NCBI GenBank assembly: GCA_964373505.1
Contig: CAYJVC010000004.1
Span: 5,916-69,915, forward strand
Direction: 5' to 3'
DNA length: 64,000 nucleotides
From: an uncultured Planctomycetia bacterium
GTDB lineage: Bacteria; Omnitrophota; Gorgyraeia; 2-02-FULL-51-18
Shown: piece by piece, positions 10,448-58,546 of the stretch
How positions within the stretch are numbered: the first letter of the stretch is position 1
Layout of the letters: each line of letters starts with the position of its first letter
The notes under the pieces: generated by a model
What the model saw: only the letters and a program-made list of their open reading frames with translations
Told to the model about the DNA's origin: nothing
Databases searched by the model: none
Translations under genes and position numbers: made by a program

Positions 10448-11698
10448 TCACCATTTTTCAAGAGCGCGAAGCGTTTTTTCGAATTCGCACGCCGTGTGGG
10501 AACCGGAAATGAAGCTCGTTTCAAACGCCGACGGCGGCACGTAAATCCCATATTCTAGCATCTTATGAAAAAATTTCCTGAATTCTTTTCTATCGGTTTT
10601 CATGACATCGCGAAAATGGACCGGTTGCCGAGCGCTGCAAAAGACCGTGAACATGGAGCCGAGGCTTTGGATCACCGCTTTTTTCTTTCGTCTGCGCAGC
10701 AGGACCCTCGCCTCTTTCAGGAAGGCCTTGGCGCTTTGGCCGAGAGCGGCATAGAAGGGCTTCGAGAGCCTGGAAAGCACCGACCGGCCGGCGACCATGG
10801 AAAGAGGGTTGCCCGAAAGCGTCCCCGCCTGATAAACCGGGCCTGCCGGCGAAAGCGCGTTCATGATCTCTTCCCGGCCGCCAAAGGCGCCGACCGGAAG
10901 CCCGCCGCCGATGATCTTTCCGAGTATCGTCAGATCCGGCTCGATGCCGTAGAGGTGTTGCGCGCCGCCGTAGCCGACGCGAAAGCCCGTGATCACCTCA
11001 TCGAAGATGAGAACCGCCCCCGCTTTTTTTGTTTCGCGTCTCAATCGACTCAAAAATTCTTTTTTAGCCGGGACCAGACCCATATTCGCGGCGACGGGTT
11101 CAACGATGGCACAGGCGATGTCCCGCGCGTTTTTAAAAAAGGCGGAGAGCTGGTCGGAATTATTGTATTCGAGCACCGTGGTCAGGCCGGCCAGTTCCTC
11201 CGGAACGCCGGCCGAATCGGGCGAGCCGAAAGTGGCAAGTCCGCTTCCCGCCTTCACGAGCAGGCTGTCGGCGTGGCCGTGGTAGCAGCCTTCGAATTTC
11301 ACGAGCCGCTTTCGGCCGGTGAATCCGCGCGCGAGCCTCACGGCGCTCATGACGGCCTCCGTGCCGGAACTTGTGAACCTTATTTTTTTGAGCGAGCCGA
11401 AGGCTTTTTGGATCTCTTTGGCCAGCGCCGTTTCGTATTCGGTGGCGGTGCCGAAGCTCGTGCCTCTCGAAGCCTGTTCCCGTATCGCTTTTGAAGTTTC
11501 TTCATCGGCATGGCCGAGAAGGATCGCGCCCCAGGACAGGCAATAATCAATGAGGCGTTTTCCGCCGTTGTCGAAGAGATACGGCCCCAGTCCCTGCCGC
11601 ATAAAAACAGGCTCCCCACCGACGGCCCTGAAGGCACGGACGGGGCTGTTGACGCCGCCGGCGATGCACCGCCGGGCTTGGCTCCAGGCGCGGCTCAC
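10448..11698 (-). CDS. hemL: glutamate-1-semialdehyde 2,1-aminomutase
   Basis: 416 aa with GGVNSPVRAF and LIFDEVITGFRVGYGGAQ motifs. It is class III aminotransferase-like and uses a GTG start. Confidence 0.9.
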   Translation of the reverse strand: MSRAWSQARRCIAGGVNSPVRAFRAVGGEPVFMRQGLGPYLFDNGGKRLIDYCLSWGAILLGHADEETSKAIREQASRGTSFGTATEYETALAKEIQKAFGSLKKIRFTSSGTEAVMSAVRLARGFTGRKRLVKFEGCYHGHADSLLVKAGSGLATFGSPDSAGVPEELAGLTTVLEYNNSDQLSAFFKNARDIACAIVEPVAANMGLVPAKKEFLSRLRRETKKAGAVLIFDEVITGFRVGYGGAQHLYGIEPDLTILGKIIGGGLPVGAFGGREEIMNALSPAGPVYQAGTLSGNPLSMVAGRSVLSRLSKPFYAALGQSAKAFLKEARVLLRRRKKKAVIQSLGSMFTVFCSARQPVHFRDVMKTDRKEFRKFFHKMLEYGIYVPPSAFETSFISGSHTACEFEKTLRALEKW

Positions 11699-11814
11699 CC
11701 CACCCCCTGCTTTCTTCCGCCATCCATAGTTTCAATCCCACGATTGGCGGAATGATTCGTCAAAGACGAATCAAAAAATCCGCGGGATTTTTTAGAAGCA
11801 GGGGGTGGGGTCAT
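11695..11814 (-). repeat. family-A palindromic intergenic element (copy a) with 39-aa linker micro-ORF MTPPPASKK...RKQGVG
   Basis: Arms CCCCACCCCCTGCTT / AAGCAGGGGGTGGGG. The micro-ORF ATG overlaps the hemB TGA (ATGA) and its TGA overlaps the hemL GTG (GTGA). Confidence 0.75.
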
Positions 11815-12788
11815 CGCGCCAGCTTCCACCGCACGAGCGCTTTGGCCCAATAACTGATAATGAAATCGGCGCCGGCCCTTTTCAGGGAAAGATGCGTTTC
11901 GTAAACAGTCTTCTTTTCGTCCAGCCATTTTTGCCGCGCGGCGGCTTTGATCATCGCGTATTCACCGCTGACACTGTAGGCGCCGACAGGGCAGCCGAAT
12001 TTGTCCTTGATCCGCCAGAGGATGTCGCCGAAGGCGAGTGCGGGTTTTACGAGGAGCATGTCTGCGCCCTCCTCGAGGTCGGTCTGCGCTTCCCGGAGCG
12101 CTTCGTGGCTGTTGGCAGTGTTCATTTGATAGCTCGAGCGGTCCCCGAACGCGGGCGCGTTTTCAGCCGCGTTACGGAATGGCGCGTAGAAGGAGGAGGC
12201 ATACTTCACGGCATAGGACAGGATCGGTGTGTGCTGAAAGCTGTTTTTATCCAGAGTGCCGCGGATCGCCAGGACTCGCCCGTCCATCATATCGGAGGGC
12301 GCGAGGACATCGGCCCCGGCCCGGGCGTAAGACAGCGCGATCTTAGCGAGTGTCCCCAGCGTCGCGTCGTTGGCGATCCGGCCGTTTTGCAGGTGCCCGC
12401 AGTGGCCGTGGCTTAAATATTCGCATAGGCAAACGTCCGCGAAGATCAGAAGCTTTGAGCACCTTTTTTTGAGAGCGCTTATCGCGCGCTGTACAACCCC
12501 CCTTTTGGCGAAGGCTTGGCGCCCGGCAGCGTCTTTTTTCGCCGGGATGCCGAAGAGGATGATGGAAGAAACCCCCAGCGACTCGAGCCTTGCGGCCTCT
12601 TCGGTCAGCGTCTTCGGGGAGAACTGAAACTGACCGGGCATCGACGGGATCTCCGCGGTCCCCGATAAACTTTCTTTAACAAAAAGAGGCTGGACGAGGT
12701 CCTTGGTGAGAAGCGAATGCTCTTCTATCAGCGCGCGCAGCTTCGGGTTCTCTCGGAGCCTTCTGAGTCGGACGAGCGGGTATTTCAC
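11811..12788 (-). CDS. hemB: porphobilinogen synthase (delta-aminolevulinic acid dehydratase)
   Basis: 325 aa with a typical HemB N-terminus (LRRLRENPKLRALIEEHSL) and active-site lysine region. Confidence 0.9.
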   Translation of the reverse strand: MKYPLVRLRRLRENPKLRALIEEHSLLTKDLVQPLFVKESLSGTAEIPSMPGQFQFSPKTLTEEAARLESLGVSSIILFGIPAKKDAAGRQAFAKRGVVQRAISALKKRCSKLLIFADVCLCEYLSHGHCGHLQNGRIANDATLGTLAKIALSYARAGADVLAPSDMMDGRVLAIRGTLDKNSFQHTPILSYAVKYASSFYAPFRNAAENAPAFGDRSSYQMNTANSHEALREAQTDLEEGADMLLVKPALAFGDILWRIKDKFGCPVGAYSVSGEYAMIKAAARQKWLDEKKTVYETHLSLKRAGADFIISYWAKALVRWKLAR

Positions 12789-14323
12789 CTAAAGTTTCCT
12801 TTTCCGGCCGATCGGCAAATGGCTTCCACCAGCCCGTCGATCGTGAAAACCTTTGCCTGGCAATGGGGTTTCAAGCCGTATTTTTTCAAAGTATGGGACG
12901 TGACAGGGCCGATGCTCGCGAAACGAATCCGTTTTGAGATCTTTTTCACGCTCGCGGGCGTAAGTATTTTAACAAAATGGTCCACCGTTGACGAGCTTGT
13001 AAATGTCACGGTGTCCACTTCCCCCCGAAGCAGTGCCTGCAACGTCTCGCGTGGGACCTTTTTTGGTATCCGCGTCAAGTAACCCGTGACCCGCGTGACA
13101 TTTGCACCGAGTTTTTTGAGCCCCTCTTCCAGCTCCGGAGGCGCCAGAGAGGCCCTTACGAGCAGGAATTTTTTTCCGTAAACGGGGACCCTCCCCGATT
13201 GAAGGGCCTCCACAATGGCCGAGGTTTCAAAACGCGGCGGCAGAAGGTCAACTTTAAGCCCTTTGGCCTCAAGCGCCTTCTGGGTTTCAGGGCCGACGCA
13301 GGCGATGTGAACACCTTGGAGGGCCCGGGCGTCTTTCCTGTGCCGGTTTCGAAGGCGGTTGAAGAAGGCCTCGACGCCGTAGGTGCTCGTAAACACAAGC
13401 CAGTCATAACGGGCGATCGTTTGGAGAGCATCATCCATTTCCTTGAAGTCGGAAAGCGGAGCTATCTCAAGGACGGGAAGCTCGAGCGCCTCCCCGCCCA
13501 TTTCCCTGATCCGGTCCGCCAGCGTGTTGGCTTTGTCGCGCGTGCGTGTCACCACGATTTTTTTGCCGAAAAGAGGCAGTCGCTCATACCAGCCGAGTTT
13601 TTTTCTTAGGGGCACCACTTCTCCAACAATGAGGATCGCCGGGGCGTTCATTCCCTTCTTTTTCACTTTTTGCGCGATATTGGACAGCACGCCGTCACAG
13701 GAGCGCTGCCGGGGAAGCGTGCCCCATTCGATCACGCAGATGGGAGTGGTCGCGGGCATCCCCGCGTGCATAAGCCGCTGGGCGATCTTGGCTAAATTAT
13801 AGAACCCCATGTAGATCACGATCGTGCCGTTCAGGGCCGCGATCTTGTTCCACGGGACCGAGTCCAGATTTTCGTCATGAGCGCGGTGGCCGGTTAGAAA
13901 AGTGACGGAGGCATTGTGCTTGCGGTGTGTGAGCGGAATACCTGCGTAGGCTGCGCAGGCCGTGGCGCTCGTGACACCGGGAATGACCTCAAAAGGTATT
14001 TTGTGTCGGTGAAGATAAAGCGCTTCTTCCCCCCCGCGTCCGAATAGATACGGGTCACCGCCTTTTAGCCGGACAACCTTTTGTCCTCTTCGGGCGGCCC
14101 GAAGGATCATCCGGTTGATTTTTTTTTGTGAAAAAGGGTGATAACGGAATCGCCTTCCGACGCAAAGACAGAGGCACCCATGCCTGGCGTGCTTTAAATG
14201 TTCGGGATTCGCCAAAGTGTCATAAACAATAAGATCCGCTTCCTGGATGCAATGAGCGGCCTTGAGCGTCAAAAGCCCCGGATCGCCGGGTCCGGAGCCG
14301 ACCAAAGACACCTTGCCGGTCAT
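12785..14323 (-). CDS. fused uroporphyrinogen-III C-methyltransferase (CobA/SUMT) and uroporphyrinogen-III synthase (HemD)
   Basis: N-terminal SUMT domain (VSLVGSGPGDPGLLTLKA) and C-terminal HemD-like domain. I place the start at ATG MTGKV, overlapping the hemC stop as ATGA; the track ORF extends upstream. Confidence 0.8.
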   Translation of the reverse strand: MTGKVSLVGSGPGDPGLLTLKAAHCIQEADLIVYDTLANPEHLKHARHGCLCLCVGRRFRYHPFSQKKINRMILRAARRGQKVVRLKGGDPYLFGRGGEEALYLHRHKIPFEVIPGVTSATACAAYAGIPLTHRKHNASVTFLTGHRAHDENLDSVPWNKIAALNGTIVIYMGFYNLAKIAQRLMHAGMPATTPICVIEWGTLPRQRSCDGVLSNIAQKVKKKGMNAPAILIVGEVVPLRKKLGWYERLPLFGKKIVVTRTRDKANTLADRIREMGGEALELPVLEIAPLSDFKEMDDALQTIARYDWLVFTSTYGVEAFFNRLRNRHRKDARALQGVHIACVGPETQKALEAKGLKVDLLPPRFETSAIVEALQSGRVPVYGKKFLLVRASLAPPELEEGLKKLGANVTRVTGYLTRIPKKVPRETLQALLRGEVDTVTFTSSSTVDHFVKILTPASVKKISKRIRFASIGPVTSHTLKKYGLKPHCQAKVFTIDGLVEAICRSAGKGNFR

Positions 14324-16286: not shown

Positions 16287-16288
16287 GA

Positions 16289-20356: not shown

Positions 20357-20357
20357 A

Positions 20358-21518: not shown

Positions 21519-21536
21519 AAATTTTTTCTCCTTATT

Positions 21537-22037: not shown

Positions 22038-22076
22038 GGAAGACTCCGTGATTAATTGGGGTTGAATAAGGGCGTT

Positions 22077-22106: not shown

Positions 22107-22110
22107 TAAA

Positions 22111-23846: not shown

Positions 23847-23874
23847 GACTTGAACTCCTCCTGTTTCCGTTTAC

Positions 23875-33181: not shown

Positions 33182-34407
33182 GCCTTGTTTGACCTTTCGA
33201 GTTTGAATTTGTTGTGCAAAAGCCGGACCGCTTTTTCAGCCTCGCTTTTTTTGACGACGCAGGAGATCTTGATCTCGCTGGTGGAGATCATCTCGATATT
33301 GATCCTGTTCTTTCCGAGCGTCTCAAACATCGCGGCCGCAACACCCGCATGGCTTCGCATGCCGATGCCGACCACGGAGACCTTTGCGATATTCGGATCG
33401 AGCAGCACTTCTTTTGCGCCGATCTTCTTCGAGGCGGCTTTGAGCGCGTGCACGGCCCGGAGAGCGTCGCCTTTGGGCACCGTGAACGAGATGTCCGTGT
33501 TGAAGGCGGACTTCCCGATATTCTGGATGATCATGTCCACATGGATCCCCTTGTTCGCAAGGGTCTTAAAAATGCCCGCCGCGATGCCGGGCCGGTTGGG
33601 GACGCCTCGCACAGAAATTTTAGCTTCGTTTTTATTTAAAGTTACGCCGCGGATCAATACGTCTTCCATTGAGCTATCCTCCTTCACGATCCATGTGCCT
33701 TCGTTTTTTGTAAAACTGCTCCTGACATGAAGCGGAATATGGTGCTTACCGGCCAACTCGATAGACCGCGACTGCATGACCTGTGCGCCGCTCGAGGCCA
33801 TTTCCAGCATCTCCTCATAACTGATCTTCCGGATTTTCCTGGCTTTTTTCACAAGGCGCGGGTCCGTGGTGAATATTCCCTCGACATCCGTGTAGATCTC
33901 GCAGGCGTCGGCCTCCAGCGCCTTTGCAAGCGCAACCGCGGTTAGGTCGCTGCCGCCGCGGCCGAGTGTGGTGATGTCATTTTGCGGGTTGACTCCTTGA
34001 AAGCCCGCCACGATCACAACCTTCTTATTCTTAAGCTCCCGTAAAATACGTTGGGTATTGATATGGCGGATGCGCGCGCAGGTGTGCGCGGGGCTTGTGC
34101 GAATGCCCACCTGCCAGCCCGTAAATGAAACAGCCGCGCTCCCGAGCTTCTCGAGCGCCATCGCCAGAAGCGCCATGGAGACCTGCTCCCCCGTGGACAT
34201 CAGAACATCGAGTTCCCGCTCGGAAGGTTTTCGTGTGATCCGGGAAGCGAGCCCCAAAAGTTCGTCCGTCGTGTCGCCCAACGCACTCACCACGACCACG
34301 AGGCGGTGCCCTTTTTTTCGGGTGTCATCGATCCGGCGGGCGACATTTTTGATCCGGTCGGGATTTGCGACGCTTGAGCCGCCGAATTTCTGCACGATCA
34401 GTTTCAT
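33178..34407 (-). CDS. lysC: aspartate kinase
   Basis: MKLIVQKFGGSSVANPDRIKNVA start and C-terminal ACT domains. The track ORF includes a 15-aa extension that is really the family-A element. Confidence 0.9.
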   Translation of the reverse strand: MKLIVQKFGGSSVANPDRIKNVARRIDDTRKKGHRLVVVVSALGDTTDELLGLASRITRKPSERELDVLMSTGEQVSMALLAMALEKLGSAAVSFTGWQVGIRTSPAHTCARIRHINTQRILRELKNKKVVIVAGFQGVNPQNDITTLGRGGSDLTAVALAKALEADACEIYTDVEGIFTTDPRLVKKARKIRKISYEEMLEMASSGAQVMQSRSIELAGKHHIPLHVRSSFTKNEGTWIVKEDSSMEDVLIRGVTLNKNEAKISVRGVPNRPGIAAGIFKTLANKGIHVDMIIQNIGKSAFNTDISFTVPKGDALRAVHALKAASKKIGAKEVLLDPNIAKVSVVGIGMRSHAGVAAAMFETLGKNRINIEMISTSEIKISCVVKKSEAEKAVRLLHNKFKLERSNKA

Positions 34408-34490
34408 CCCACCACCTCTTTTCGAGGCGGCATAGCCGCCTCCGCGTGACAAACTGAAATTGAAAATTTCAAAAGAGGGGGTGGGGTCAT
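34404..34490 (-). repeat. family-A palindromic element (copy b) with 28-aa micro-ORF MTPPPLLKFSISVCHAEAAMPPRKEVVG
   Basis: Arms CCCACCCCCTCTTTT / AAAAGAGGTGGTGGG. Its ATG overlaps the apgM TGA and its TGA overlaps the lysC ATG (ATGA at both ends). Confidence 0.75.
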
Positions 34491-35632
34491 TTCAAAAAAT
34501 GCTCCATGAGCGGGTGTCCTTCAGGGAATTGAAGTTTGCTTTGAGCCGCCGTTTTTTCGTTGAAGCCCGGGTGCTTTTCCGCGGCGAATCCGTGCCCCGC
34601 GATGAGGAACGGCACCGGCCCGTGAGCAGCCGAACGGCTCGCGGAGGATGTCGCCGTGTCCGTGCAAACGAGCAAACGGTGATCCCCCAGGTTTTCCAGG
34701 CACTTCGTGGCAATTCCCACAACCTGCGCATCAAAGCGTTCGATCAGACGAATTTTTGTTTTCCAGGGATCGGTTTCGGGTTGTACCTGGTCTGCGGCCA
34801 TGTACACGAACGTGAGTTCATGGTTTCGGAGCGCCTTTTCAAGGTCGTCGACGACCTTGAAACCCAGGGACAGTCCGAGCCCCTTGGCAAAATCAGCCTG
34901 AGAAAATACGGCGCCGTCCACGCCAAAGCGATCCTTGAAACGGGGAAGCCGGGGCCGGCGGCCCTGCCCCCAGGGCCAGATCATGTTCGCCGGATTTTCC
35001 CCGAGGTCTATCCTGACCCGGTTGATCTCATGGTGCTCCAGAACGGTCTTGGATTTTTCCATGAGACTTGTGATGACCTCGGCGTCTTCCCCCTTCGGGA
35101 GCACCTTGGCCATTTTCTGACCGATCGCCCGTGAAGGCGGAACGCACTCCAGCTCATCGAGACTTTCGGCCTTTTCAGGGTCACGGATCATCAGGATATT
35201 TTTGTAGCCTTCTCTCGGATAGAACTTGATCTGCGGGCTTGAGAGTTTTTTATTGAGTTCCTCGATCAAGAGTGAGGACTCCTCGGGCGGAATGAAGCCT
35301 GCGCTTACATCTGCCAGAAGCCCGTCCGAAACCGTGACAAGGTCGCAGCGGAACGCGATCTCATTGTCGTCCTGGGAGATACCGGCTGCGGCGGCCTCAA
35401 GCGGCGCAACCCCCGTGTAAAATTCTTCCGGAGGGTAACCCAGAATGGCCATCGCCGCGACGTCGCGTGTTAGGGCCAATTTAGGCGACGTGAAGATCGC
35501 CGAACCCACACGGCCTTTTTTTGCCAATTGATGCAAAAATGGGGCTTTTGCCAGTTCCATCGGCGTGCGGCCGCCCAGAGCCTCGACCGGATCGTCCGTG
35601 GCCGCTTCGCAAACCAACACCGCGTATTTCAC
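34487..35632 (-). CDS. cofactor-independent phosphoglycerate mutase (archaeal ApgM type); by context a candidate non-orthologous homoserine kinase
   Basis: 381-aa ApgM-family protein that starts with GTG. It is embedded between lysC and thrC with hom upstream, and no classical thrB is present in the block. Confidence 0.6.
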   Translation of the reverse strand: MKYAVLVCEAATDDPVEALGGRTPMELAKAPFLHQLAKKGRVGSAIFTSPKLALTRDVAAMAILGYPPEEFYTGVAPLEAAAAGISQDDNEIAFRCDLVTVSDGLLADVSAGFIPPEESSLLIEELNKKLSSPQIKFYPREGYKNILMIRDPEKAESLDELECVPPSRAIGQKMAKVLPKGEDAEVITSLMEKSKTVLEHHEINRVRIDLGENPANMIWPWGQGRRPRLPRFKDRFGVDGAVFSQADFAKGLGLSLGFKVVDDLEKALRNHELTFVYMAADQVQPETDPWKTKIRLIERFDAQVVGIATKCLENLGDHRLLVCTDTATSSASRSAAHGPVPFLIAGHGFAAEKHPGFNEKTAAQSKLQFPEGHPLMEHFLK

Positions 35633-35715
35633 CCCATCCCCTCTTTCTGAGGCGCCAACGGCGCCTCGGCGTTGTACGCTGAAATTGAAAAATTCAAAAG
35701 AGGGGATGGGGTCAT
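35629..35715 (-). repeat. family-A palindromic element (copy c) with micro-ORF MTPSPLLNFSISAYNAEAPLAPQKEGMG
   Basis: Arms CCCCATCCCCTCTTTT / AAAGAGGGGATGGGG. It makes an ATGA overlap with the thrC stop and a GTGA overlap with the apgM-like start. Confidence 0.75.
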
Positions 35716-38074: not shown

Positions 38075-38093
38075 TTTTCTCTTTCATAAATTG

Positions 38094-38169
38094 TCGGGGT
38101 GGTGAGATTTGAACTCACGATCTCGCGCACCCCAAGCGCGCGCTCTGGACCAAGCTGAGCCACACCCCG
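38094..38169 (-). tRNA. tRNA-Pro (GGG anticodon)
   Basis: Cloverleaf CGGGGTGTGGCTCAGCTTGGTCCAGAGCGCGCGCTTGGGGTGCGCGAGATCGTGAGTTCAAATCTCACCACCCCGA with anticodon loop TTGGGGT. CCA is not encoded. Confidence 0.8.
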
Positions 38170-41506: not shown

Positions 41507-43309
41507 TTAGGACTCGATCTTTAAAGCGGCCAGGAATGCCTCTTGTGGGATCTCCACTTTGCCGAACTGTTTCATGCGCTTCTTGCCCTCTTTCTGCTTT
41601 TCCCACAGCTTGCGTTTTCTCGTGATGTCGCCGCCGTAGCATTTGCTCGTGACGTTTTTTCCCATGGGCCTTACGGATTCGCGCGCGATGATCTTTCCCC
41701 CGATCGCGGCCTGGATGACCACCTCGAACATCTGCCTGGGGATGAGCTCCTTTAGTTTTTCGCAGAGCGCGCGGCCCTTTGTTTGGGCCTTATCGTGATG
41801 CACCATGGAACTGAACGAATCGCAGATCTCCGAGTTGATGAGGATGTCGAGTTTCACGACGTCACTATCCCGGTGCCCCTTCACCTCGTAGTCCAGCGAG
41901 CCGTAACCCTTCGAAATGGATTTGACGCGGTCATAGAAATCAACGATGATCTCGGCCAGCGGAAAGTCATAGATCACTTTGACCCTCTCCTCGTCGATAT
42001 GCTCGGTGGAAATGTACCGACCGCGGCGTTGCTCGCAGAGCTCAAAGATCGCGCCGATGCAATTTTGGGGAATGAGGATGGCGGCATGTACGAACGGCTC
42101 AAGGATTTCCCGGACCTGGCTCGGATCCGGCATCTTGGAAGGATTGTCCACTTCAACGAGGTTTCCGTCTAACTTCCGCACCTTGTAGACGACGCTGGGC
42201 GTGGTGATGACGAGACTCATGCCATATTCGCGCTCCAGTCTTTCCTGCACGATCTCCATATGGAGAAGTCCGAGGAATCCGCACCGGAAGCCAAACCCGA
42301 CGGAAGCCGAGTTTTCTATTTCATAAACGAACGAGGAGTCGCTCAAGGACAGTTTTTCTATCGAGTCCTTCAGCGCCTGGAAATCCGCAGAGTTGACCGG
42401 ATAAATGCCGGCAAACACGAGCGGGCGGATCTTCTTGTAACCCGGGAGCGCTTCCTCCGTCGGACTCAGCGCGTCCGTGACGGTGTCCCCGTTTTCCACC
42501 TCTTTTGCGTTTCGGATGTTGCAAGAGACATAGCCGACTTCGCCGGGCCCGAGGGATTCACAAGCTGTAGGTTTGGGCGTCAGGTTGCCGATGCCCAACA
42601 CATCGTAGGTTTTCCCCGCGGCCAGCATCTTTATTTTCATGCCCTTTTTCAGGACCCCGTTGAACACACGAACGTACACGATCACGCCCTGGTATGCGTC
42701 GTACTGGGAGTCAAAAATAAGCGCCTGAAGCTTTTTAGCCGGGTCCCCTTCCGGCGGCGGGATCACCTCCACCACCCGATCCAGGATTTGGGTGATGCCG
42801 GTCCCCATCTTGGCGCTGGCGAGCAGGATCTCATGCTCGTCGATTCCGAGATATTTGTGGATCTGTTTTTTTACCTTTTCCGGTTCGGCCGTGCCGAGGT
42901 CTATCTTATTGATGACGGGAATGATCTCGAGGTCATTCTCCATCGCCAGGTACAGATTGGCCACGGTTTGCGCCTCGACGCCCTGACCGGCGTCCACAAG
43001 AAGCAGCGCCCCCTCGCAGGCGCGCAGGGACTTGGCGACCTCGAACGTGAAGTCCACGTGGCCCGGCGTGTCGATCAGGTTGAGCGTGTAGTTCTTGCCG
43101 TCTTTTTTGGAATGATAATTGATCTTGACCGCGCTCGCCTTGATCGTGATGCCGCGCTCCTGCTCCAGCGCCATATCGTCCAGGAGCTGGTTGTGGAATG
43201 TGCGGCTGTCAATGGCGCCGGTGTGCTCGAGGATACGGTCGGCTAGCGTGGACTTGCCGTGATCGATATGCGCGATGATCGAAAAATTACGGATATGCGC
43301 CTGCCTCAT
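41507..43309 (-). CDS. lepA: elongation factor 4
   Basis: 600 aa with a GTPase start IRNFSIIAHIDHGKSTLADR and a LepA C-terminal domain. Confidence 0.95.
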   Translation of the reverse strand: MRQAHIRNFSIIAHIDHGKSTLADRILEHTGAIDSRTFHNQLLDDMALEQERGITIKASAVKINYHSKKDGKNYTLNLIDTPGHVDFTFEVAKSLRACEGALLLVDAGQGVEAQTVANLYLAMENDLEIIPVINKIDLGTAEPEKVKKQIHKYLGIDEHEILLASAKMGTGITQILDRVVEVIPPPEGDPAKKLQALIFDSQYDAYQGVIVYVRVFNGVLKKGMKIKMLAAGKTYDVLGIGNLTPKPTACESLGPGEVGYVSCNIRNAKEVENGDTVTDALSPTEEALPGYKKIRPLVFAGIYPVNSADFQALKDSIEKLSLSDSSFVYEIENSASVGFGFRCGFLGLLHMEIVQERLEREYGMSLVITTPSVVYKVRKLDGNLVEVDNPSKMPDPSQVREILEPFVHAAILIPQNCIGAIFELCEQRRGRYISTEHIDEERVKVIYDFPLAEIIVDFYDRVKSISKGYGSLDYEVKGHRDSDVVKLDILINSEICDSFSSMVHHDKAQTKGRALCEKLKELIPRQMFEVVIQAAIGGKIIARESVRPMGKNVTSKCYGGDITRKRKLWEKQKEGKKRMKQFGKVEIPQEAFLAALKIES

Positions 43310-43392
43310 GCGGGTTTCACCCCACCCTCTGATCGGCTCATCTTTGATGAACCGATCGCTCTAAGATCGTTGCGATCAGGCGGTGGGGTCAT
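43306..43392 (-). repeat. family-A palindromic element (divergent copy d) with micro-ORF MTPPPDRNDLRAIGSSKMSRSEGGVKPA
   Basis: Arms CCCCACCGCCTGATCG / CGATCAGAGGGTGGGG. It makes ATGA overlaps with the phosphohexomutase stop and with the lepA ATG. Confidence 0.7.
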
Positions 43393-48151: not shown

Positions 48152-48938
48152 GGATGGCCTTTGCGAACGGGCGCACAAATTTTTTTGCGAACGCCTCGGC
48201 GTTCAAATGAAGATGCGCGGCCAGCGTGTTTACCAGGGCGCTGCCTACGATGACGCCGTCGGCGATCTTTGACACCTGCTTCGCACGGGCAGGATCTGAG
48301 ACGCCGAAACCCACGCACACCGGGAGTGCCGTCATTTTCTTGATAGCGGAAATATTTTTACGGACGCTCTCCGTCACAAGGTGATGGGCGCCGGTTACGC
48401 CGGTCAGGGAAACGTAGTAAATAAAACCCCTCGAGGCTCCTACGATAAGCCGGCGCCGTGCCCCGGTGCTTGTGGGCGCCAAAAGATACACCAGGTCCAC
48501 GCCGTTCCTGCGCATGAGCGCGCGGATGTCTTTTTCCTCGTCCGGCGGTAGGTCCGGCACTATCAAACCGTCCACGCCGGAGTCGCGCGCGGCCTTCGCG
48601 AAATGAGCCGGGCCCATCGCGAGGATCGGATTGAGATAGCTCATGAGGAGGATCGGGGTGCTTGATTTCCTGCGGGCTTTTTTCACAAGCGCTAAAATTT
48701 TACGCAGCGTCGTGTGTCGCTTGAGCGACCGGTTGGAAGCCTCCTGGATGACGGGCCCGTCCGCCAAGGGGTCTGAAAAAGGCACCCCCAGCTCAATGAG
48801 GTCCACCCCCGCCTTCTCCAATGTGCCGATCAACTCCCCGGTCATTTTGAGGCTTGGGTCGCCGGCCGTGATAAAAACGACAAGCGCCTTTTTCCCTTCC
48901 TTTTTCAGCGCTTTGAATTTTTTTTCTATACGATTCAC
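48144..48938 (-). CDS. trpA: tryptophan synthase alpha chain
   Basis: 264 aa that starts with GTG and is typical of TrpA (LVVFITAGDPSL...). Confidence 0.9.
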   Translation of the reverse strand: MNRIEKKFKALKKEGKKALVVFITAGDPSLKMTGELIGTLEKAGVDLIELGVPFSDPLADGPVIQEASNRSLKRHTTLRKILALVKKARRKSSTPILLMSYLNPILAMGPAHFAKAARDSGVDGLIVPDLPPDEEKDIRALMRRNGVDLVYLLAPTSTGARRRLIVGASRGFIYYVSLTGVTGAHHLVTESVRKNISAIKKMTALPVCVGFGVSDPARAKQVSKIADGVIVGSALVNTLAAHLHLNAEAFAKKFVRPFAKAIHD

Positions 48939-49021
48939 CCCACCCCCTCCTTTTGAGACAACGATGTTGTCTCAATGCTATGCATCAAAATTGAAAATTT
49001 TAAAGGAGGGGGTGGGGTCAT
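48935..49021 (-). repeat. family-A palindromic element (copy e) with micro-[31 protein letters not shown]
   Basis: Arms CCCCACCCCCTCCTTT / AAAGGAGGGGGTGGGG. It makes an ATGA overlap with the trpB stop and a GTGA overlap with the trpA start. The AAGGAGG Shine-Dalgarno site lies in the 3' arm. Confidence 0.8.
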
Positions 49022-50223
49022 AGATGCAAAACCTTTGAAACGCTTTCCATGTCTTTGTCGCCCCGTCCCGAGAGGCAAACCACGATCACTTCTTTCTTTT
49101 TAAAGCGTGATTTGTGTTTGGCCAGATACCCGAACACGTGCGCGGTTTCAAGCGCCGGAATGATGCCCTCGGTTTGGCTTAAAATTTTCATCCCCAAGAG
49201 CGCTTCCTTGTCGGTCGCCGATACGTATTCCGCGCGGCGGATCTTTTTCAGGTACGCATGTTCAGGGCCTACGCCGGGATAGTCGAGACCCGCCGAGATC
49301 GAGTGCGCGAGTTTCACCTGTCCGTCCCGGTCCTGCAACACCTCGCTTTTTGACCCGTGCAGGACGCCGATCTTGCCCAAAGACAGTGTCGCCGAATGGC
49401 GGTCCGTGCCCAGGCCATGGCCTGCCGCCTCCACACCGATAAGTTTCGTTCTGCTTTTAAGGAAAGGATAAAAAAGGCCGATGCTGTTCGACCCGCCGCC
49501 CACGCAGGCGATGCAGGTGTCGGGCGAACGAACCCCCAGAGGCCTTAACTGCGCAATCGTCTCTTTTCCGATCACCGATTGAAAATCCCTCACCATCACG
49601 GGGTACGGATGAGGCCCGATCACCGAGCCAATAATGTAATGCGTGTCCTTCACATGAGTGACCCAGTCGCGGATCGCCTCGTTCACGGCGTCTTTCAAGG
49701 TCCGCGAGCCGGATCTTACAGGGATCACGCGCGCGCCGAGGAGTTTCATGCGGAATACGTTGAGCGCCTGCCGCTCGATGTCCACCTGCCCCATGTAAAC
49801 ATCGCAGGGAATACCGAAAAGAGCGCACACGGTCGCGGTCGCAACGCCATGCTGCCCGGCTCCCGTTTCGGCGATCACGCGCTTTTTGCCCATGCGAAGC
49901 GTCAAAAGCGCCTGCCCAATCGTGTTGTTGATCTTGTGGGCGCCGGTGTGGAGAAGGTCCTCCCGCTTAAGATAGACTTTTTTCACGCCGAGATATTCGG
50001 CCAGGTGCCGGGCTTCGGTGAGCGCAGTCGGGCGACCGGCAAAATTCCTCAGGTAATGGCTGACTTCCTTTTTGAATTTCGGATCGAGCCGAGTGCTCCG
50101 GTAAGCTTTCTCAAGCTCTTCCAGCGCGGCCATCAAGGTTTCGGGCACGTACTTCCCTCCGTACGGCCCGAAGTGGCCGCGCGAGTCCGGAACTTTGGTT
50201 CGGCGGTTACGCTGATCTGGCAT
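49018..50223 (-). CDS. trpB: tryptophan synthase beta chain
   Basis: 401 aa with a PLP-binding region HTGAHKINN. Confidence 0.95.
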
Positions 50224-50920
50224 TTTGGATGAATTCTTTCAAAAGTTCATGGTCCTTGATCCCCGGGCGCTTTTCCACGCCGCTCGAGACGTCCACGCCG
50301 TAGGGTGAAAGTGTCTGAATGGCTTTCCGGACGTTGCTGGGACGAAGCCCCCCTGAAATAATCACTGGTTTTAGTCGATCTCGAAGGTCACGGGTCCTGC
50401 CGCTCCGAGAGCCCATTTTTTGCAAGTGTTTCCCTTGCAAAAAATGGGCGCCCCTCTCCGCGTCACCCGTGACCTTCGAGATCTCGGCTGACAACATTTT
50501 CCAATTGAAATTTTGCCCGCTTCCTCCGTATCGGCCTGTTACTTGTGTGTCAAATAAATAGGCGTCCGCGGGAAAGCCGAGAAGATTTTCCAAATGAAAC
50601 CCTTCATCGACGCGAAAAGCCTTTATGACTTTACAACAACGGAGCTTTTTTGTATAGGCCCGGGTTTCGTCCCCGTGAAGCTGCACCGCGCTTAAGCCGC
50701 AGAGCCGGGCTATCATCTCCACTTTCCTGGGGTTTTCGTTCACGAAAACCCCCACCGTCGTGACAAAGGGTCCGAGTTTTCCTATGATCTCTTGTGCCCT
50801 TTTTGGGGTCAGCCGCCGCGGGCTTTTGGCGAATACGAACCCGAGCGCGTCGGCCCCACACCCAAGTGCGGCGCGCGCGTCGGGCAAATTCGTGATCCCG
50901 CAGATCTTAACCCTGACCAT
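50207..50920 (-). CDS. trpF: phosphoribosylanthranilate isomerase carrying an in-frame ~37-aa insertion derived from a family-B palindromic element
   Basis: VKICGIT...[16 protein letters not shown] then an extra [36 protein letters not shown] before the conserved PVIISGGL. Confidence 0.8.
50377..50487 (-). repeat. family-B palindromic element (copy B2) inserted in-frame within trpF
   Basis: CGATCTCGAAGGTCACGGGTCCTGCCGCTCCGAG...CGCGTCACCCGTGACCTTCGAGATCTCG with ~20-bp perfect inverted arms. Length is a multiple of 3. Confidence 0.75.
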
Positions 50921-52717: not shown

Positions 52718-53286
52718 TATTGGGTCAGACGGAGGAAATTTTTCAGGATCTCTTTGCCGGACTGCGTCAGGATGGATTCAGGATGGAACTGGACTCCGTA
52801 AACCGGGTATCGTTTGTGTTGAAGGCCCATGATCTCCTTTTCCCGGGTCTCGGCCGTGATCTCCAGCTCTTTCGGCAGGCTTTTTCTTTCGACCAAAAGC
52901 GAGTGGTACCTTGTACCGATGAACGGATTATCGATATTTTTGAAGATCCCCTTCCCGGTGTGGTGAATCCGCGAGGTTTTTCCGTGCATGAGCCTGGCCG
53001 CACCCACCACTTTTCCGCCGTAGGCTTCGCCTATGCACTGATGCCCCAGGCAGACGCCGAGGATCGGGACCTTGTCGCCGAGCTTTTGGATGATCTGGAG
53101 GGAAATGCCGGCCTGCTTCGGGTTGCCGGGGCCCGGCGAGATCACGATGCGGCTTGGTTTCATTTTTTTGATCCGGGGTATCGTGATTTCGTCATTCCTG
53201 AAAATTTTAAGTTCCTGCCCCATTTCGCCCAGGTACTGCACGAGGTTATAAGTGAACGAGTCATAATTGTCGATCATCAGGATCAC
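52717..53286 (-). CDS. trpG: anthranilate synthase component II (glutamine amidotransferase)
   Basis: [18 protein letters not shown]...GVCLGHQ. I place the start at GTG, overlapping the micro-ORF TGA; the track ORF reads on into the repeat. Confidence 0.85.
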
Positions 53287-53438
53287 CCCATCCCCTCCTT
53301 TTGAGACGACATTGCCCCATCCCCCGTTTGAATGATTGCTTCGCAATCAGTTCGCGGAGCGAACCAAACAGGGGATGGGGTTGTCGTCCCAATGCTTTGC
53401 ATAAGAATTGAAAATTCTAAAGGAGGGGATGGGGTCAT
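53283..53438 (-). repeat. family-A element (copy f) with nested internal duplicate; 51-aa micro-ORF MTPSPPLEFSILMQSIGTTTPSPVWF...SSQKEGMG
   Basis: Outer arms CCCCATCCCCTCCTTT / AAAGGAGGGGATGGGG plus an inner CCCCATCCCCTGTTTG / CAAACGGGGGATGGGG pair. ATGA overlap with the trpE stop and GTGA overlap with the trpG start. Confidence 0.75.
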
Positions 53439-54931: not shown

Positions 54932-55330
54932 TCAATACACCTTCGCGGGATCGAATACGCGCTCATCCGTGATCTGACGCGAGCCGTCTTTTTCCACCTT
55001 TTCGAAATAACAGCTCAAATACCCCTTGTGGCAGCCGGCGACCTTTTGATCGATGATGAAAAGGAGCGATTTTCCCTCGCAGTCGGCGCGGAATTCCCTA
55101 ACAGCCTGCGTGTGGCCGGAGCTTTCGCCCTTCATCATGAGTTTGTTCTGCGAGCGCCGGAATAGATAAATGAACCCCTTCTCAAGCGTGGCCCTGAGTG
55201 CTGTGTCATTCATGTAACACAGCGTCAAAACTTTTTTGCTGGCCGCGTCCTGGATGATCGCCGGGATCAAGCCGGTTTGCGCGTCAAATTTAAGCATGCT
55301 CTTTATTTTCTGAAAATCCGTTTCAGTCAT
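54932..55330 (-). CDS. hisI: phosphoribosyl-AMP cyclohydrolase
   Basis: HisI-like 132 aa. I prefer the start at the second ATG (MTETDFQ), which has AGGAG 8 nt upstream. Confidence 0.8.
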   Translation of the reverse strand: MTETDFQKIKSMLKFDAQTGLIPAIIQDAASKKVLTLCYMNDTALRATLEKGFIYLFRRSQNKLMMKGESSGHTQAVREFRADCEGKSLLFIIDQKVAGCHKGYLSCYFEKVEKDGSRQITDERVFDPAKVY

Positions 55331-55341
55331 AACCACTCCTA

Positions 55342-55506
55342 TTAACATGTGTCATTTCGAGCGCCCGCCAAAGGCGGGTCCGCCTCAGGCGGAAAGCGAG
55401 ACCAGCCTGTCCCTGCCCGTCCGGCAGGCGGGCGGCAGGCAGGAATCTCATCAAGTCGTGTGATGAGATCTCTCGTCGCTTCGCTCCTCGAGATGACATG
55501 GTTCAT
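55342..55506 (-). repeat. family-C multi-hairpin GC-rich intergenic element between hisF and hisI, spanned by a 54-aa linker ORF
   Basis: Outer inverted repeat GTCATTTCGAGCG / CGCTCCTCGAGATGAC enclosing three further hairpins. The linker ORF MNHVISRSEATRDL... starts 3 nt after the hisF stop. Confidence 0.5.
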
Positions 55507-55509
55507 GTC

Positions 55510-56271
55510 CTACAATCTAACGTGGACTCCTTTTCTACTTAGGTATTGTTTCGCCTGTTTCACCGTGAATTCCCTAGTGTGAAAAATACTCGCCGCCAAG
55601 ACTGCGTCCGCCCGCCCCTTCGTAAGTCCATCGGCCAGGTGCTTCAGATTTCCGGCCCCGCCCGAGGCGATCACGGGAATTCCGACCGCATCCGAAACGG
55701 CGCGCGTAAGCCCAAGGTCATAGCCGCTTTTCGTGCCGTCCCGGTCCATGCTCGTGAGAAGGATCTCACCCGCGCCCAGCGCTTCCGCTTTCCGGGCCCA
55801 CTGAACCGCATCCAGCCCTGTCCTATTGCGGCCGCCGTGCGTGTAGACCTCCCACCCATGGCCGCGGGGCCTGCGTTTCGCGTCAATCGCCGCGACGATG
55901 CACTGCGAACCGAATCGTGAAGCGCTTTTCTTCAAGAACTTCGGATCTTTTACGGCCGCCGTGTTGATGGATACCTTGTCTGCGCCGGCGTTCAGGAGGC
56001 TGCGGATGTCTTGCAGAGTGCTGACGCCGCCTCCAACCGTGAGCGGCATGAACGCTTTCTCGGCCGTCCGCCGCACGAGTTCAAGCAGGATGCCTCTTTT
56101 TTCGTGCGAGGCCGTGATGTCGAGGAACACGAGCTCATCCGCGCGCTGCTTGTCGTAATAGACCGCGCAGGCGACAGGGTCGCCGGCATCACGAAGGTCC
56201 ACAAACCGCGTGCCCTTGACCACGCGGCCGGCCTTCACGTCCAGACAAGGAATTATACGTTTTGCGAGCAT
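55510..56271 (-). CDS. hisF: imidazole glycerol phosphate synthase cyclase subunit
   Basis: 253 aa reading [17 protein letters not shown]... Confidence 0.95.
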
Positions 56272-56984
56272 ACTTGAATAGCTTCTTTTAGCGTGAATTT
56301 GTTCTCATAAAGCGCTTTGCCTATCACGACCCCCCGGATGTTCTTTTTCTTGAGTTTCATCAGCGCTTCGAGGTCCTTCAGCGAACTCACGCCCCCGGAG
56401 GCGATAAGGTCGAGGTTCACGGCTTCACTGGCGTTTTTTATCTCTTTGATGTTCAACCCGGAAAGAGCCCCGTCCTTTGAAATATCCGTGTAGATCACGG
56501 TTTGCCCGCCGAGCTTTTCAAATTCTTTGATGAATTGGACGGCATTTATTTTTGTGACCTTTGTCCAGCCGTCCGTCGCGATGAGCCCGTCCCGTGCATC
56601 GACGCCGATGATCGCCTTCTCCTTAAGCTCGGACACGAGCTCTTTTATGAATCCTCTGTCGAGACACGCCTGGGTGCCGAAAATGACCCACCCGGCGCCC
56701 ATCGCCAGATACCTAGCCGCGGTTTGGAGGCTGCGGATGCCGCCTCCCACCTCGACCGGGGTCCGCACGGCGTTTAAGATCCGCTCGATCGTCTTTATGT
56801 TTTTCGGCTCGCCTTTCAGCGCCCCGTCCAGGTCCACCACGTGGATCCTGGACGCCCCCTCCTCTTCAAAGCGCCTGGCGATATCTTCCGCCTTTTCCGA
56901 ATAGATCTTTTCGGCCTTGAAGTCTCCTTGGAAAAGACGGACAACCTTACCGTCCTTGAGGTCGATCGCGGGGATAGGGATCAC
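56253..56984 (-). CDS. hisA: 1-(5-phosphoribosyl)-5-[(5-phosphoribosylamino)methylideneamino]imidazole-4-carboxamide isomerase
   Basis: Starts with GTG: (M)[16 protein letters not shown]... Confidence 0.9.
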
Positions 56985-57067
56985 CCCGCCCCCTCTTTCC
57001 GAGGCGCCAGCGGCGCCTCGACGTTGCAGGTTGAAATTAAAAATTTTGAAAGAGGGGGTGGGGTCAT
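56981..57067 (-). repeat. family-A palindromic element (copy g) with micro-[31 protein letters not shown]
   Basis: Arms CCCCACCCCCTCTTTC / GAAAGAGGGGGCGGGG. Its ATG lies 6 nt after the hisH TAG stop and its TGA overlaps the hisA GTG. Confidence 0.75.
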
Positions 57068-57073
57068 GCGAGG

Positions 57074-57688
57074 CTACTTAAGACGGACGAAGTTCTTGAC
57101 GATCCGAAGGCCCGCGTTCTGGCTTTTCTCGGGATGGAACTGGGTCGCAAAGATATTATCGCGCCAGACGCTGGAGCAGAATCCAAACCCGTAATCGGTG
57201 GTGGAGGAGACCCAGCTTGTGTCCTGGGGGGCGCCGTAGAACGAATGCACAAAATAGAAAAAATCGCCCGGACGGATCCCCTGGAAAAGCGGACAGTCTT
57301 TTTTTTTGAGGTTCAACGTGTTCCAGCCCATGTGCGGGATCTTGAGTCTTACTCGGAATTTTTTCACCTTTCCGCGGATGATCCCAAACCCGGCGGACTT
57401 GCGCTTGCCTTCATTTTCCTCGCTCTCCTCGAATAAAAGCTGCAGCCCCAAGCACAAGCCAAGATAGGGCGTGCCCCCAAGCACTTTTTTACGGATTACG
57501 TCCACCAGCCTCCGCTTCTCAAGCTCGCGGACAGCCGCCGTAAAGGCACCGACACCGGGCAGCACGATCATTTCGGCGTTGGCGATGTCGGATCGGGACG
57601 ACGTGATCCTGGGTTTGGCCCCGCCCTTCTCGAACGCCTTCTCGACGCTGCGGAGATTGCCCATCCCATAATCCACAATAGCAATCAT
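57074..57688 (-). CDS. hisH: imidazole glycerol phosphate synthase glutamine amidotransferase subunit
   Basis: MIAIVDYGMGNLRSV...GVCLGLQ. Confidence 0.95.
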   Translation of the reverse strand: MIAIVDYGMGNLRSVEKAFEKGGAKPRITSSRSDIANAEMIVLPGVGAFTAAVRELEKRRLVDVIRKKVLGGTPYLGLCLGLQLLFEESEENEGKRKSAGFGIIRGKVKKFRVRLKIPHMGWNTLNLKKKDCPLFQGIRPGDFFYFVHSFYGAPQDTSWVSSTTDYGFGFCSSVWRDNIFATQFHPEKSQNAGLRIVKNFVRLK

Positions 57689-57828
57689 TCGACAAACCAG
57701 TCTGGATTCGACGGGTCCTGCCGCTGCGGCAGCCCCAATGGTTCCCGCGTCACTGCGGAGCGCTGCGAGCGAATGGGGCGCCCCGCCTCCGCGTCACCCG
57801 TCGAATCCAAAATCTCTGCGAAAATCAT
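57685..57828 (-). repeat. family-B palindromic element (copy B3) filling the hisB-hisH gap, spanned by a 47-aa linker ORF MIFAEILDSTGDAEAG...NPDWFVE
   Basis: Arms GATTCGACGGGTCCTGCCGC / CGCGTCACCCGTCGAATC. The linker ATG overlaps the hisB TGA (ATGA) and the linker TGA overlaps the hisH ATG (ATGA). Confidence 0.7.
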
Positions 57829-58451
57829 AATTTCCCTTTTGTTGAAGGGATAAACTTAATGCGTTCGTCGAGCGCCGTGGCCCAATCGAGCGCCTTGGCA
57901 AGCGCTTTAAAGGTCGCTTCGATGATGTGGTGAGACTGCTCGCCCGCGATGAAATCCACGTGCAGCGTAAGCCCTAGGTGTCCGGCGAACGACTCCCAAA
58001 AGTGTTTGGCGTCCGCGAGCGTGTAGTCCCGATCGCCTTTTTTTTCACGAAGCGCCGGGTGATCGATCCATTTTGTTTTCGGGTGAGTGTGCATATGAAA
58101 CGAACCGCGTCCGCTCAAGTCAATGGACACGCGTGTTTGGGTCAGCGCCTCGTCGAGCGGTGCGCGGAAATCCGCGAATCGCCGTATCCCTTTTTTGTCG
58201 CCCAGCGCTTTTTTGAACGCCTCCCCGAGCGCTATGCCGACGTCTTCGTTCGTGTGGTGCTTGTCAATGTGAAGGTCCCCTTTGGCCTTGAGCACAAGAT
58301 CAAACAGCCCGTGCTTGGCCAAAGTTTCGAGCATATGGTCCAAAAAACCGATGCCGGTGCTGACTTTTGCACGGCCCTTGCCGTCGATGTTGAGCTCGAC
58401 GACAACGCTTGTTTCCTTCGTTTTTCTGCTATACTTAACCGCTCGTTTCAT
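57825..58451 (-). CDS. hisB: imidazoleglycerol-phosphate dehydratase
   Basis: 208 aa with IGFLDHML, HHTNEDVGIALG and HIIEATFKALA motifs. Confidence 0.9.
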   Translation of the reverse strand: MKRAVKYSRKTKETSVVVELNIDGKGRAKVSTGIGFLDHMLETLAKHGLFDLVLKAKGDLHIDKHHTNEDVGIALGEAFKKALGDKKGIRRFADFRAPLDEALTQTRVSIDLSGRGSFHMHTHPKTKWIDHPALREKKGDRDYTLADAKHFWESFAGHLGLTLHVDFIAGEQSHHIIEATFKALAKALDWATALDERIKFIPSTKGKL

Positions 58452-58546
58452 GTCAGCCCCGTTTTTTCACCCCATCCCCTATTTCGTGACGCAAAGCGTC
58501 ACCTTTTGATTTGCTTTGCAAATCAAGAAATAGGGGATGGGGTCAT
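58452..58546 (-). repeat. family-A palindromic element (degenerate copy h); micro-ORF truncated to MTPSPIS
   Basis: Arms CCCCATCCCCTATTTC / GAAATAGGGGATGGGG with a different internal loop. ATGA overlap with the hisD stop. hisB uses its own ATG 20 nt downstream. Confidence 0.65.

Follow-up and report, generated by a model that had tools for sequence, protein, structure and literature searches.

Mobile palindromic elements at stop/start codon junctions of an Omnitrophota genome probably rebuild the translation signals of the operons they enter

Mycobacterial interspersed repetitive units (MIRUs; Supply et al. 1997) are, according to PMC3184786 and PMC12548453, repeats of 40-100 bp that lie between the genes of polycistronic operons, have filled and empty sites and carry short direct repeats at their flanks, and the ends of their small open reading frames (ORFs) overlap the stop and start codons of the neighboring genes. 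A 2025 review adds that MIRUs seem to insert at start codons and that their ORF, coupled at a spacing of -4 nt, has a minimal impact on expression (PMC12548453). Here we describe short palindromic elements in a 64-kb stretch (64,000 nt, hereafter the window) of contig CAYJVC010000004.1 from an uncultured bacterium. MIRUs are their closest analogue. As in MIRUs, the small ORF of the element runs in the operon direction and overlaps the flanking stop and start codons. The host belongs to Omnitrophota and not to the mycobacteria, and the two kinds of sequence are probably unrelated. MIRUs are direct-repeat units in tandem (variable-number tandem repeats, VNTRs) with tetranucleotide repeats at their flanks and without long perfect terminal inverted repeats (TIRs), whereas the elements described here are single TIR hairpins with a 3-bp, mostly TGA, duplication, a stem of 16-17 bp that would occlude the ribosome-binding site (RBS), reading frames open in both orientations, and length classes yielding a relay micro-ORF in one case and an in-frame peptide in the other.

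The Rickettsia palindromic elements (RPEs; Ogata et al. 2000, cited in PMC3184786) are palindromic mobile repeats tolerated as in-frame peptides, with a parallel in those subfamilies described below whose length is a multiple of three. RPEs, however, measure 100-150 bp, are restricted to Rickettsia and show no TGA-phased regeneration of stop and start codons, and in the window, family A does not share the frame of any host gene but forms a separate micro-ORF. The Correia/NEMIS, ERIC/IRU, RUP and Nezha elements are likewise small, with TIRs, a target duplication, a long hairpin, many copies, co-transcription and no transposase gene, but they mostly make TA or longer duplications and lie in untranslated spacers, and none is described as regenerating overlapping stop and start codons together with a Shine-Dalgarno (SD) tract (PMC3184786, PMC2229807). 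A further likeness is to engineered coupling designs, in which the leader stop overlaps the gene start, a second SD sequence lies within the leader and translating ribosomes remove inhibitory structure at the downstream RBS; these are synthetic, immobile and devoid of inverted-repeat termini. Short-ORF coupling of this kind exists as bicistronic designs and translation-coupling cassettes. The 2025 review mentions an engineered short leader ORF by which a ribosome is delivered to the downstream gene (PMC12548453). Our literature search found no description of elements like the present ones in Omnitrophota or Planctomycetes, and a large census of MITEs (miniature transposable elements with inverted repeats) mentions neither group. 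They form a new element family and apparently a superfamily in bacteria of the Planctomycetes-Verrucomicrobia-Chlamydiae (PVC) group. A first-pass annotation, made from the letters of the window, had not recognized them as a described family, which agrees with our search, although the concept has a precedent in MIRUs, from which the strategy has been known so far.

Each of the 58 genes predicted in the window is on the minus strand, and there is hardly any spacer between them. The eight copies that had been annotated are present where they were placed, all on the minus strand, and comprise nine elements, since copy f is a nested pair. Common to all nine are the termini CCCCAYCCCCT and AGGGGRTGGGG. 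With at most one mismatch, CCCCAYCCCCT occurs 18 times in the window against 2.2 ± 1.4 times in shuffles (none of 100 shuffles reaches 18), and 17 of the 18 occurrences fall in the elements; the inverted arms reported earlier are indeed shared. The arms measure 16-23 nt and are 90-100% complementary in an inverted-repeat scan. The cores range from 66 to 149 nt, contain no transposase gene and have as their sole ORFs micro-ORFs of 7-51 aa. No copies beyond these were detected by a looser paired-arm search of the window, and no further copy occurs in about 3 kb of DNA past its low end. The eight had also been regarded as one family, which does not hold. Copies b, c, e, g and the outer f constitute family A (80 nt, gapless alignment, 84% mean column identity), whereas a (113 nt), d (69 nt), h (73 nt) and f-inner (66 nt) have only the termini in common with the rest. 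The flanking genes hemB/hemL, thrC/apgM/lysC, a phosphomutase gene (pgm-like)/lepA, trpB/trpA and trpE were assigned with NCBIfam, and trpG, hisD, hisB, hisH and hisA from synteny and Pfam, in agreement with the genes named at first. On the evidence given below, we consider it likely that these are non-autonomous, MITE-like elements of an Omnitrophota/Planctomycetota superfamily, which make a 3-bp (usually TGA) duplication and are kept where their termini rebuild translation signals.

Homologues of TrpA and ApgM place the window in Candidatus Omnitrophota, and the nearest named relative is Omnitrophica RIFCSPHIGHO2_02_FULL_51_18 (74% and 70% identity for TrpA and ApgM, respectively). The gene orders hisDBHAFI-trpEGDCFBA ... 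pgm-lepA and hom-thrC-apgM-lysC are kept in relatives, so five occupied junctions could be compared with empty counterparts, all five holding family-A elements in the window (comparison loci are labeled L001, L033, L159 and so on). At trpB/trpA, where element e (48938-49017, minus strand, 80-nt core) has 17-bp perfect arms, the empty site in L033 reads ...CTCT ATGA ATCGTAT... and the window reads ...ATCT ATGA [CCCC...GGGG TGA] ATCGTAT.... The other four junctions have matching flanks in the window, followed by the element and a TGA. They are trpE/trpG with outer element f (53286-53434, minus strand), empty in L033 as ATGA TCCTCATGATCGAC, which begins TCCT; hisH/hisA with element g (56984-57063, minus strand, 80-nt core), empty in L028 as ATGA TTGCTATCCCC; thrC/apgM with element c (35632-35711, minus strand, 80-nt core), empty in L160 and L159 as ATGA AATAC; and apgM/lysC with element b (34407-34486, minus strand, 80-nt core), empty in L160 as ATGA GTTTGATCG. 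At all five, the insert consists of the CCCC...GGGG core and one extra TGA, that is, a 3-bp target-site duplication. The first-pass annotation had proposed that an element entered an ATGA, duplicated the TGA and re-created a GTG start with its terminal G, and had named this comparison beforehand; the empty junctions read (A/G)TGA followed by the same downstream bases at the five sites, as that model predicts. Comparison of filled and empty sites shows that the elements are mobile, MITE-like insertions. Four features by which MITEs are recognized were found, namely small size without a transposase, TIRs, a target-site duplication, and dispersed copies that differ in presence and absence.

The nested copy is informative about the target. 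Element f-inner (53315-53380, minus strand, 66 nt), which belongs to another subfamily, interrupts the third hairpin loop of outer f and is flanked by CAA on both sides (53381-53383 and 53312-53314). When the inner copy and one CAA are removed, the remaining 87 nt can be aligned to the other four family-A copies with no gap, and the 69-nt insert does not shift the frame of the outer micro-ORF. In metagenomes, members of one subfamily have the flanks TGA/TGA, CAA/CAA or TGG/TGG. Because the flanks of the nested copy and of the metagenome members vary by site, the triplet on either side represents a genuine duplication rather than a constant end of the element.

Six relatives lack the arm motif throughout their syntenic his-trp-pgm region, which in the window harbors five copies. 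In a second sample containing the same strain (99.98% identity over 4.2 kb), b and c are in place. A short-read (Logan) contig of the same organism (L027, ERR4904390) includes element d and begins at element e; because it starts at one of these repeats, assemblies may break at the elements. The apgM/lysC junction may have a more complicated history. In L159, from Omnitrophica RIFCSPHIGHO2_02_FULL_51_18, it is filled by a different element of 110 nt (4161-4277). The arms of this element are of the variant CCCCACCACC/GGTGGTGGGG, and its ORF of 38 aa ends in a stop that overlaps the GTG of lysC. ApgM of the window and that of L159 are about 70% identical. In copy b, the 3' arm shows the variant of L159 and the 5' arm is canonical. 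This suggests either a long-occupied site at which elements have been replaced, b being a hybrid, or a recurrent hotspot.

The positions of the copies relative to genes are not random, as had been anticipated. Only 32 of the 2156 TGA trinucleotides in the window are stop codons, yet seven of the eight insertions lie on one (P ~1e-12). Copy g was inserted into the ATGA with which hisA originally began, 6 nt past the TAG stop of hisH, where there is no stop/start overlap; the ATG noted 6 nt after this TAG in the first reading is present and is the original hisA start. All eight copies have ATGA on their 5' side, whereas the unoccupied 4-nt overlaps are a mixture of ATGA, GTGA and TTGA. The window has fifteen 4-nt overlaps and two 1-nt overlaps that are unoccupied. 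No copy is found in its 25 longer spacers, and none lies inside a gene.

A scan of species-representative genomes for the arms, without any constraint on the flanks, found related elements in metagenome-assembled genomes (MAGs) of Planctomycetia and Omnitrophica; it gave no match in the genome of the window itself. Once these copies are oriented by the TGA on either side, one long ORF is seen to end at the 5' TGA and a second to start at the last G of the element plus TG. The downstream genes (NCBIfam) are ybeY, murG, pstB, metG, dxr, pgsA and pgpA, with profile alignments from the first residues; for murG, pstB, metG, dxr, pgsA and ybeY, begun at the GTG derived from the element, the alignments start at position 1-8. 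Elements read in frame also occur. In L077, a 78-nt element within sucD is read as 27 extra residues, at which the profile match is split, and in-frame elements produce N-terminal extensions in L022 and L006. Two side observations concern the arrangement of copies. In L001, pgsA lies between two copies (1301-1369 and 1930-1998). In L026 (Planctomycetales), the 3' TGA of the element at 4226-4320 is directly followed by another CCCCACCCCCTG arm, and because this TGA abuts a further arm, elements can form tandem arrays that share a TGA. An arms-only scan of metagenomes gave 120 matches, of which only about 10 are true relatives; most were rejected as G-rich palindromes without relation to the elements, with CCCCACCCCC lying inside a longer repeat. 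A 66-nt repeat of Anaerolineae, CTCACCCCACCCCC...GGGGGTGGGGTGAG, was also set aside as a different, fully palindromic family. In Anaerolineae bacterium H33_435 (L002, L008, L011-L013, L016, L021, L025), it is a multi-copy perfect palindrome of 64-66 nt that has the decamer, but its flanking TCA/TGA belongs to the palindrome. A search of viral contigs gave no matches.

For the relation to reading frames, we compared 23 distinct TGA-flanked elements in about 14 families, a small sample whose families are related by descent. The frame of the upstream NTG (N, any base) has no interior stop in 22 of the 23, the exception being h, whereas the +1 and +2 frames of the same interiors contain stops in 11 and 10 of the 23, respectively. 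This sequence comparison shows that the elements are phased with translation, and copies in other genomes are phased with the flanking stop and start codons in the way claimed for the window. The core lengths fall into classes. In about seven families, the length is 0 mod 3, so that the old start stays in frame and the element forms an N-terminal or internal peptide. In about five (family A, copy a, L159, L015 and L056), it is 2 mod 3, and the duplicated TGA ends a separate micro-ORF and overlaps a new GTG (GTGA). A length of 1 mod 3 is represented only by h, one of about 13 families (the chance of at most one in 13 is ~0.04). Related pairs of elements have the same orientation to the NTGA flank in 11 of 11 independent comparisons (~5e-4).

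Within the window, a micro-ORF beginning MTP(P/S)P is open through copies a, b, c, d, e, f and g, with 39, 28, 28, 28, 28, 51 and 28 aa, respectively, and closes after 7 aa in h; these are the lengths first reported. The interval is a multiple of three in all copies except h. The micro-ORFs of the family-A copies occupy 34404-34490 (b), 35629-35715 (c, starting MTPSP), 48935-49021 (e), 53283-53438 (f) and 56981-57067 (g). In b, the 3' arm is decayed (GAGGTGGTGGGA), and its last base has changed from G to A, which gives lysC an ATG start. Element a (11698-11810, minus strand) lies at hemB/hemL with a 113-nt core (2 mod 3), 16-bp perfect arms and TGA flanks at 11811-11813 and 11695-11697, and the TGA stop of its micro-ORF (11695-11814) overlaps the GTG of hemL. 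NCBIfam profiles of the downstream genes trpA, hemL, apgM and lysC align from position 1-8 when translation is begun at the element-derived start. A search of a protein collection with the micro-ORF peptides gave no matches; since nothing matched, the micro-ORFs are missing from that collection.

For copies d and h, the description given at first needs correction. Both were inserted where the upstream gene ends with TGA (context AAATGA), their ATG is no gene start, and the ATG that belongs to the downstream gene itself follows after another 7-15 nt. Element d (43320-43388, minus strand) is inserted at the stop of the pgm-like gene and has a 69-nt core (0 mod 3). Its micro-ORF (43306-43392) runs through the element and three further codons and stops at a TGA overlapping the ATG of lepA. 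It belongs to the same subfamily as copies in L001 (Planctomycetia) and L020 (Omnitrophica). Without element d, the pgm/lepA junction (43306-43319) reads ATGAAACCCGCATGA, a mini-ORF of four codons that overlaps the pgm stop with its start and the lepA start with its stop, whereas the junction of relatives is simply ATGA; this mini-ORF could be the footprint of an earlier insertion and excision. Element h (58470-58542, minus strand), at the TGA stop of hisD, has a 73-nt core (1 mod 3) and is the sole window copy with in-frame stops. Here, hisB retains its own ATG at 58451, 15 nt past the 3' TGA of the element.

The predicted RNA fold of each copy consists of an outer stem of the two arms and two or three inner hairpins. 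The minimum free energy (MFE) of whole elements ranges from -40 to -87 kcal/mol with z scores of -4.2 to -10.3, element a having an MFE of -86.6 and a z score of -10.3. The outer stem takes in the A of ATGA, the SD-like tract and the T of the GTG start, so the earlier proposal that the 5' arm can pair with the SD tract is borne out by the fold. In the alignment of family A, 93.9% of cells are paired, and 11 pairs, distributed over all four helices, show compensatory double changes. None of 500 shuffles matches these values, and slid partners give only 46-56% paired. The polymorphic Y of one arm covaries with the R of the other, and because of this covariation, codons 2-4 encode PPP in a, b, d, e and g and PSP in c, f and h. 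The constraint acts on the stem, not on the peptide. A dependence on elongation factor P (EF-P), which had been suggested from the proline codons, is therefore not a property of the family, three of the eight copies having PSP.

The SD-like tract itself departs in part from the earlier description. A textbook AGGAGG occurs only in e, where it lies 7 nt before the GTG of trpA, and in f; its counterpart is GAGG(G/T) in b, c and g and no more than a run of G in a. Other genes of the window use AGGAGG-type sites. The 3' arms pair with the canonical anti-SD tail at -8 to -12.5 kcal/mol, a tail that was assumed and may not be the host's. An Rfam scan of the window at the gathering threshold detected two tRNAs only and no family for the elements, and permissive scans gave matches to miRNA-precursor hairpins at 16-27 bits against thresholds of at least 73. 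The tRNA-Pro(GGG) gene to which attention had been drawn is present at 38093-38169, but nothing links it to the elements. A tRNA-Met(CAT) gene lies at 7020-7094, and no connection to the elements was seen.

These observations can be combined into the following model. Two or three small hairpins, enclosed by the terminal inverted repeats CCCCAYCCCCT.../...AGGGGRTGGGG, make up each element, which would be moved by a DDE-type transposase. In gene-dense operons on a single strand, insertions would survive only at the TGA of NTGA overlaps, at stop codons or at ATGA start codons. The old ATG would then open a micro-ORF that is free of stops through the element. In the 2 mod 3 class, the duplicated TGA would close this micro-ORF, and the last G plus TG would provide a new, overlapping GTG start; in the 0 mod 3 class, the old start would remain in frame, and the element would be read as an N-terminal or internal peptide of 22-28 aa. 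The 3' arm would supply a G-rich, SD-like tract, which pairing with the 5' arm places in a very stable stem. A ribosome that ends the upstream gene at ATGA would re-initiate at the old ATG, traverse the element and melt the stem, terminate at the duplicated TGA, and re-initiate at the overlapping GTG with the aid of the G-rich tract. Downstream initiation would hinge on this two-step termination-reinitiation relay. With stop, start and RBS rebuilt, the operon would probably still be translatable.

Several points weigh against this model. When the elements are flipped, the equivalent frame is still open in 18 of the 23, and the strict common orientation of related copies is not predicted by a simple, symmetric cut-and-paste mechanism. 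Among arm pairs 0.4-4 kb apart in the 1.1 Mb searched, there is no autonomous element or transposase with these termini. The literature search also returned nothing decisive that links 3-bp duplications of the TNA type to a specific insertion sequence (IS) family. IS5/PIF-Harbinger-like families make 3-bp duplications and may serve as a lead. The copies are not near-identical, at 84% mean column identity, so amplification is not recent or proceeded from several master copies. The anti-SD of the organism had to be assumed because the window contains no 16S rRNA gene, and the survey covers one 64-kb window and scattered loci. Finally, we infer from sequence alone that the micro-ORFs are translated and that the downstream genes depend on it.

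A domesticated regulatory cassette would account for some of the same features. Its RBS-occluding stem and its leader peptide, with PPP near the start, would tune the synthesis of the downstream enzyme, and this tuning could depend on the rate of upstream translation, on EF-P or on the supply of proline-tRNA. The compensatory changes that maintain all four helices, the fixed orientation, the occupation of about one third of the NTGA-type junctions of the window and the many amino-acid biosynthesis genes among those affected are consistent with such a function, as is the apgM/lysC junction, which is occupied in two species only ~70% identical in ApgM and where the 3' arm of b has the variant of the L159 element. 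However, relatives do without the element at the five empty-site junctions, their genes there simply overlapping by 4 nt or being separated by a small gap (6 nt for hisH/hisA of L028). The interiors of the subfamilies are unrelated, three copies have PSP in place of PPP, and elsewhere copies stand at unrelated housekeeping genes and even within sucD. The absence from relatives, the nested copy, the decayed arms in b and g and the heterogeneous interiors favor a selfish element over a host cassette, and we regard the latter as unlikely. The first-pass annotation had offered a coupling cassette or, equivalently, a tolerated MITE-like element; the MITE-like part is retained, but the two are not equivalent, the empty sites in relatives, the nesting and the decayed arms pointing to the selfish one.

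The phasing could instead be a by-product. Ordinary MITEs with a preference for TGA would be found at gene ends because purifying selection removes insertions within genes, and G/C-rich termini would by accident give rise to the open frame, the GTG and the SD-like tract, with independent downstream initiation or mildly deleterious copies. Duplication of a TGA next to a terminal G indeed yields GTGA automatically, CCCC/GGGG arms cannot hold stop codons, and the sample is small and related by descent. On the other hand, the start-codon frame is the one without stops in 22 of 23 elements when each of the other frames is stopped in about half, hardly any length is 1 mod 3, no copy occurs in the window's 25 longer spacers, and the stem would block independent initiation. 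We give this explanation the same low probability as a domesticated cassette.

It is improbable, more clearly so than in either of these cases, that the elements are hairpins of the REP/REPIN type (moved by RAYT) or derivatives of IS200/IS605 (PATE-like), which move as single-stranded DNA into a fixed short target without duplicating it. Palindromic hairpin repeats within operons, maintenance of the hairpins by compensatory change and the strict orientation relative to the flanking TGA would all be expected of them. Yet the flanking triplets covary with the site within one family (TGA/TGA, CAA/CAA, TGG/TGG), which denotes a true target duplication, and no RAYT or TnpA gene was seen in the gene list of the window. 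REP/REPIN sequences are defined by a conserved tetranucleotide, GTAG or CGTC, that tags one end of the palindrome, and they have no target duplication (PMC3733652), whereas the termini here are CCCC/GGGG without such a tag. Least probable of all is a role at the RNA or transcription level only, as intrinsic terminators, attenuators or 3' stabilizers of the upstream mRNA like the REP/BIME of E. coli. Very stable stems directly past stop codons speak for it, but they are not followed by a U-tract, and the frame phasing, the length classes and the in-frame intragenic copy would be left unexplained. A terminator or promoter role was ruled out, as no terminator-like or promoter-like site on the sense strand coincides with any element.

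A bolder extension of the preferred explanation, that of MITE-like elements kept where they rebuild translation signals, is rather doubtful but worth stating. A PVC transposon superfamily may have evolved to be translation-transparent, with termini that encode the TGA target, the overlapping stop and start codons, the SD/anti-SD stem and frames open in both orientations, and may thereby colonize the sole free niches of streamlined genomes, gene junctions and even coding sequences. As a side effect, dozens of housekeeping and biosynthetic genes would come under an added control by leader peptides (polyproline, EF-P) and RNA structure, which the host may have started to exploit.

If the MITE-like elements behave as proposed, a genome that has hardly any non-coding DNA can still be invaded by a selfish element, which uses the stop/start overlap and carries in its termini what re-creates the stop, the start and the RBS. 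They would be a second, structurally independent case of the strategy proposed for mycobacterial MIRUs, from the little-studied uncultured phyla Omnitrophota and Planctomycetota, and because the two examples are structurally independent, the strategy looks convergent. In annotation, gene callers will set starts wrongly or add extensions of 22-28 aa at such junctions. The natural module of stem, micro-ORF and GTGA may also serve as a ready-made part for translational coupling.

Palindromic inserts of other kinds were observed in the same operons. A second palindromic family (family B) with 50-nt arms, GAGATCTCGAAGGTCACGGGT..., lies at 50377-50483 (minus strand) inside the trpF ORF (50207-50920) and is read in frame. 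TrpF of the window contains an extra block of about 26-34 aa that is absent in three relatives and only 8 aa long in L028. The trpF insert is an RPE-like intragenic insertion. Another family-B copy, TGGATTCGACGGGT...ACCCGTCGAATCCA, at 57703-57809 fills the 136-nt hisB/hisH spacer; this junction is a 4-nt overlap in L031 and L033 and holds a different palindrome of 218 nt in L028. A third structured palindromic insert, ATGTCATCTCGAG...CTCGAAATGACACAT, of about 160 nt (55349-55509) is found in the hisF/hisI spacer, where relatives have a 4-nt overlap, and the stretch 55340-55520 (181 nt) has an MFE of -84.7 with a z score of -6.1. Counting all families, palindromic inserts occur at eight junctions or genes of the his-trp-pgm stretch. 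Directly past the hisD TGA, relatives have other palindromic repeats, namely GTCATTGCGAGCGAAGCGAAGCAATC... in the hisD/hisB spacer of L033 (~1122-1211) and TGACCCGCC...GGCGGGTCA in L028 (930-978). The position just past a TGA stop seems to draw several unrelated hairpin families in this clade.

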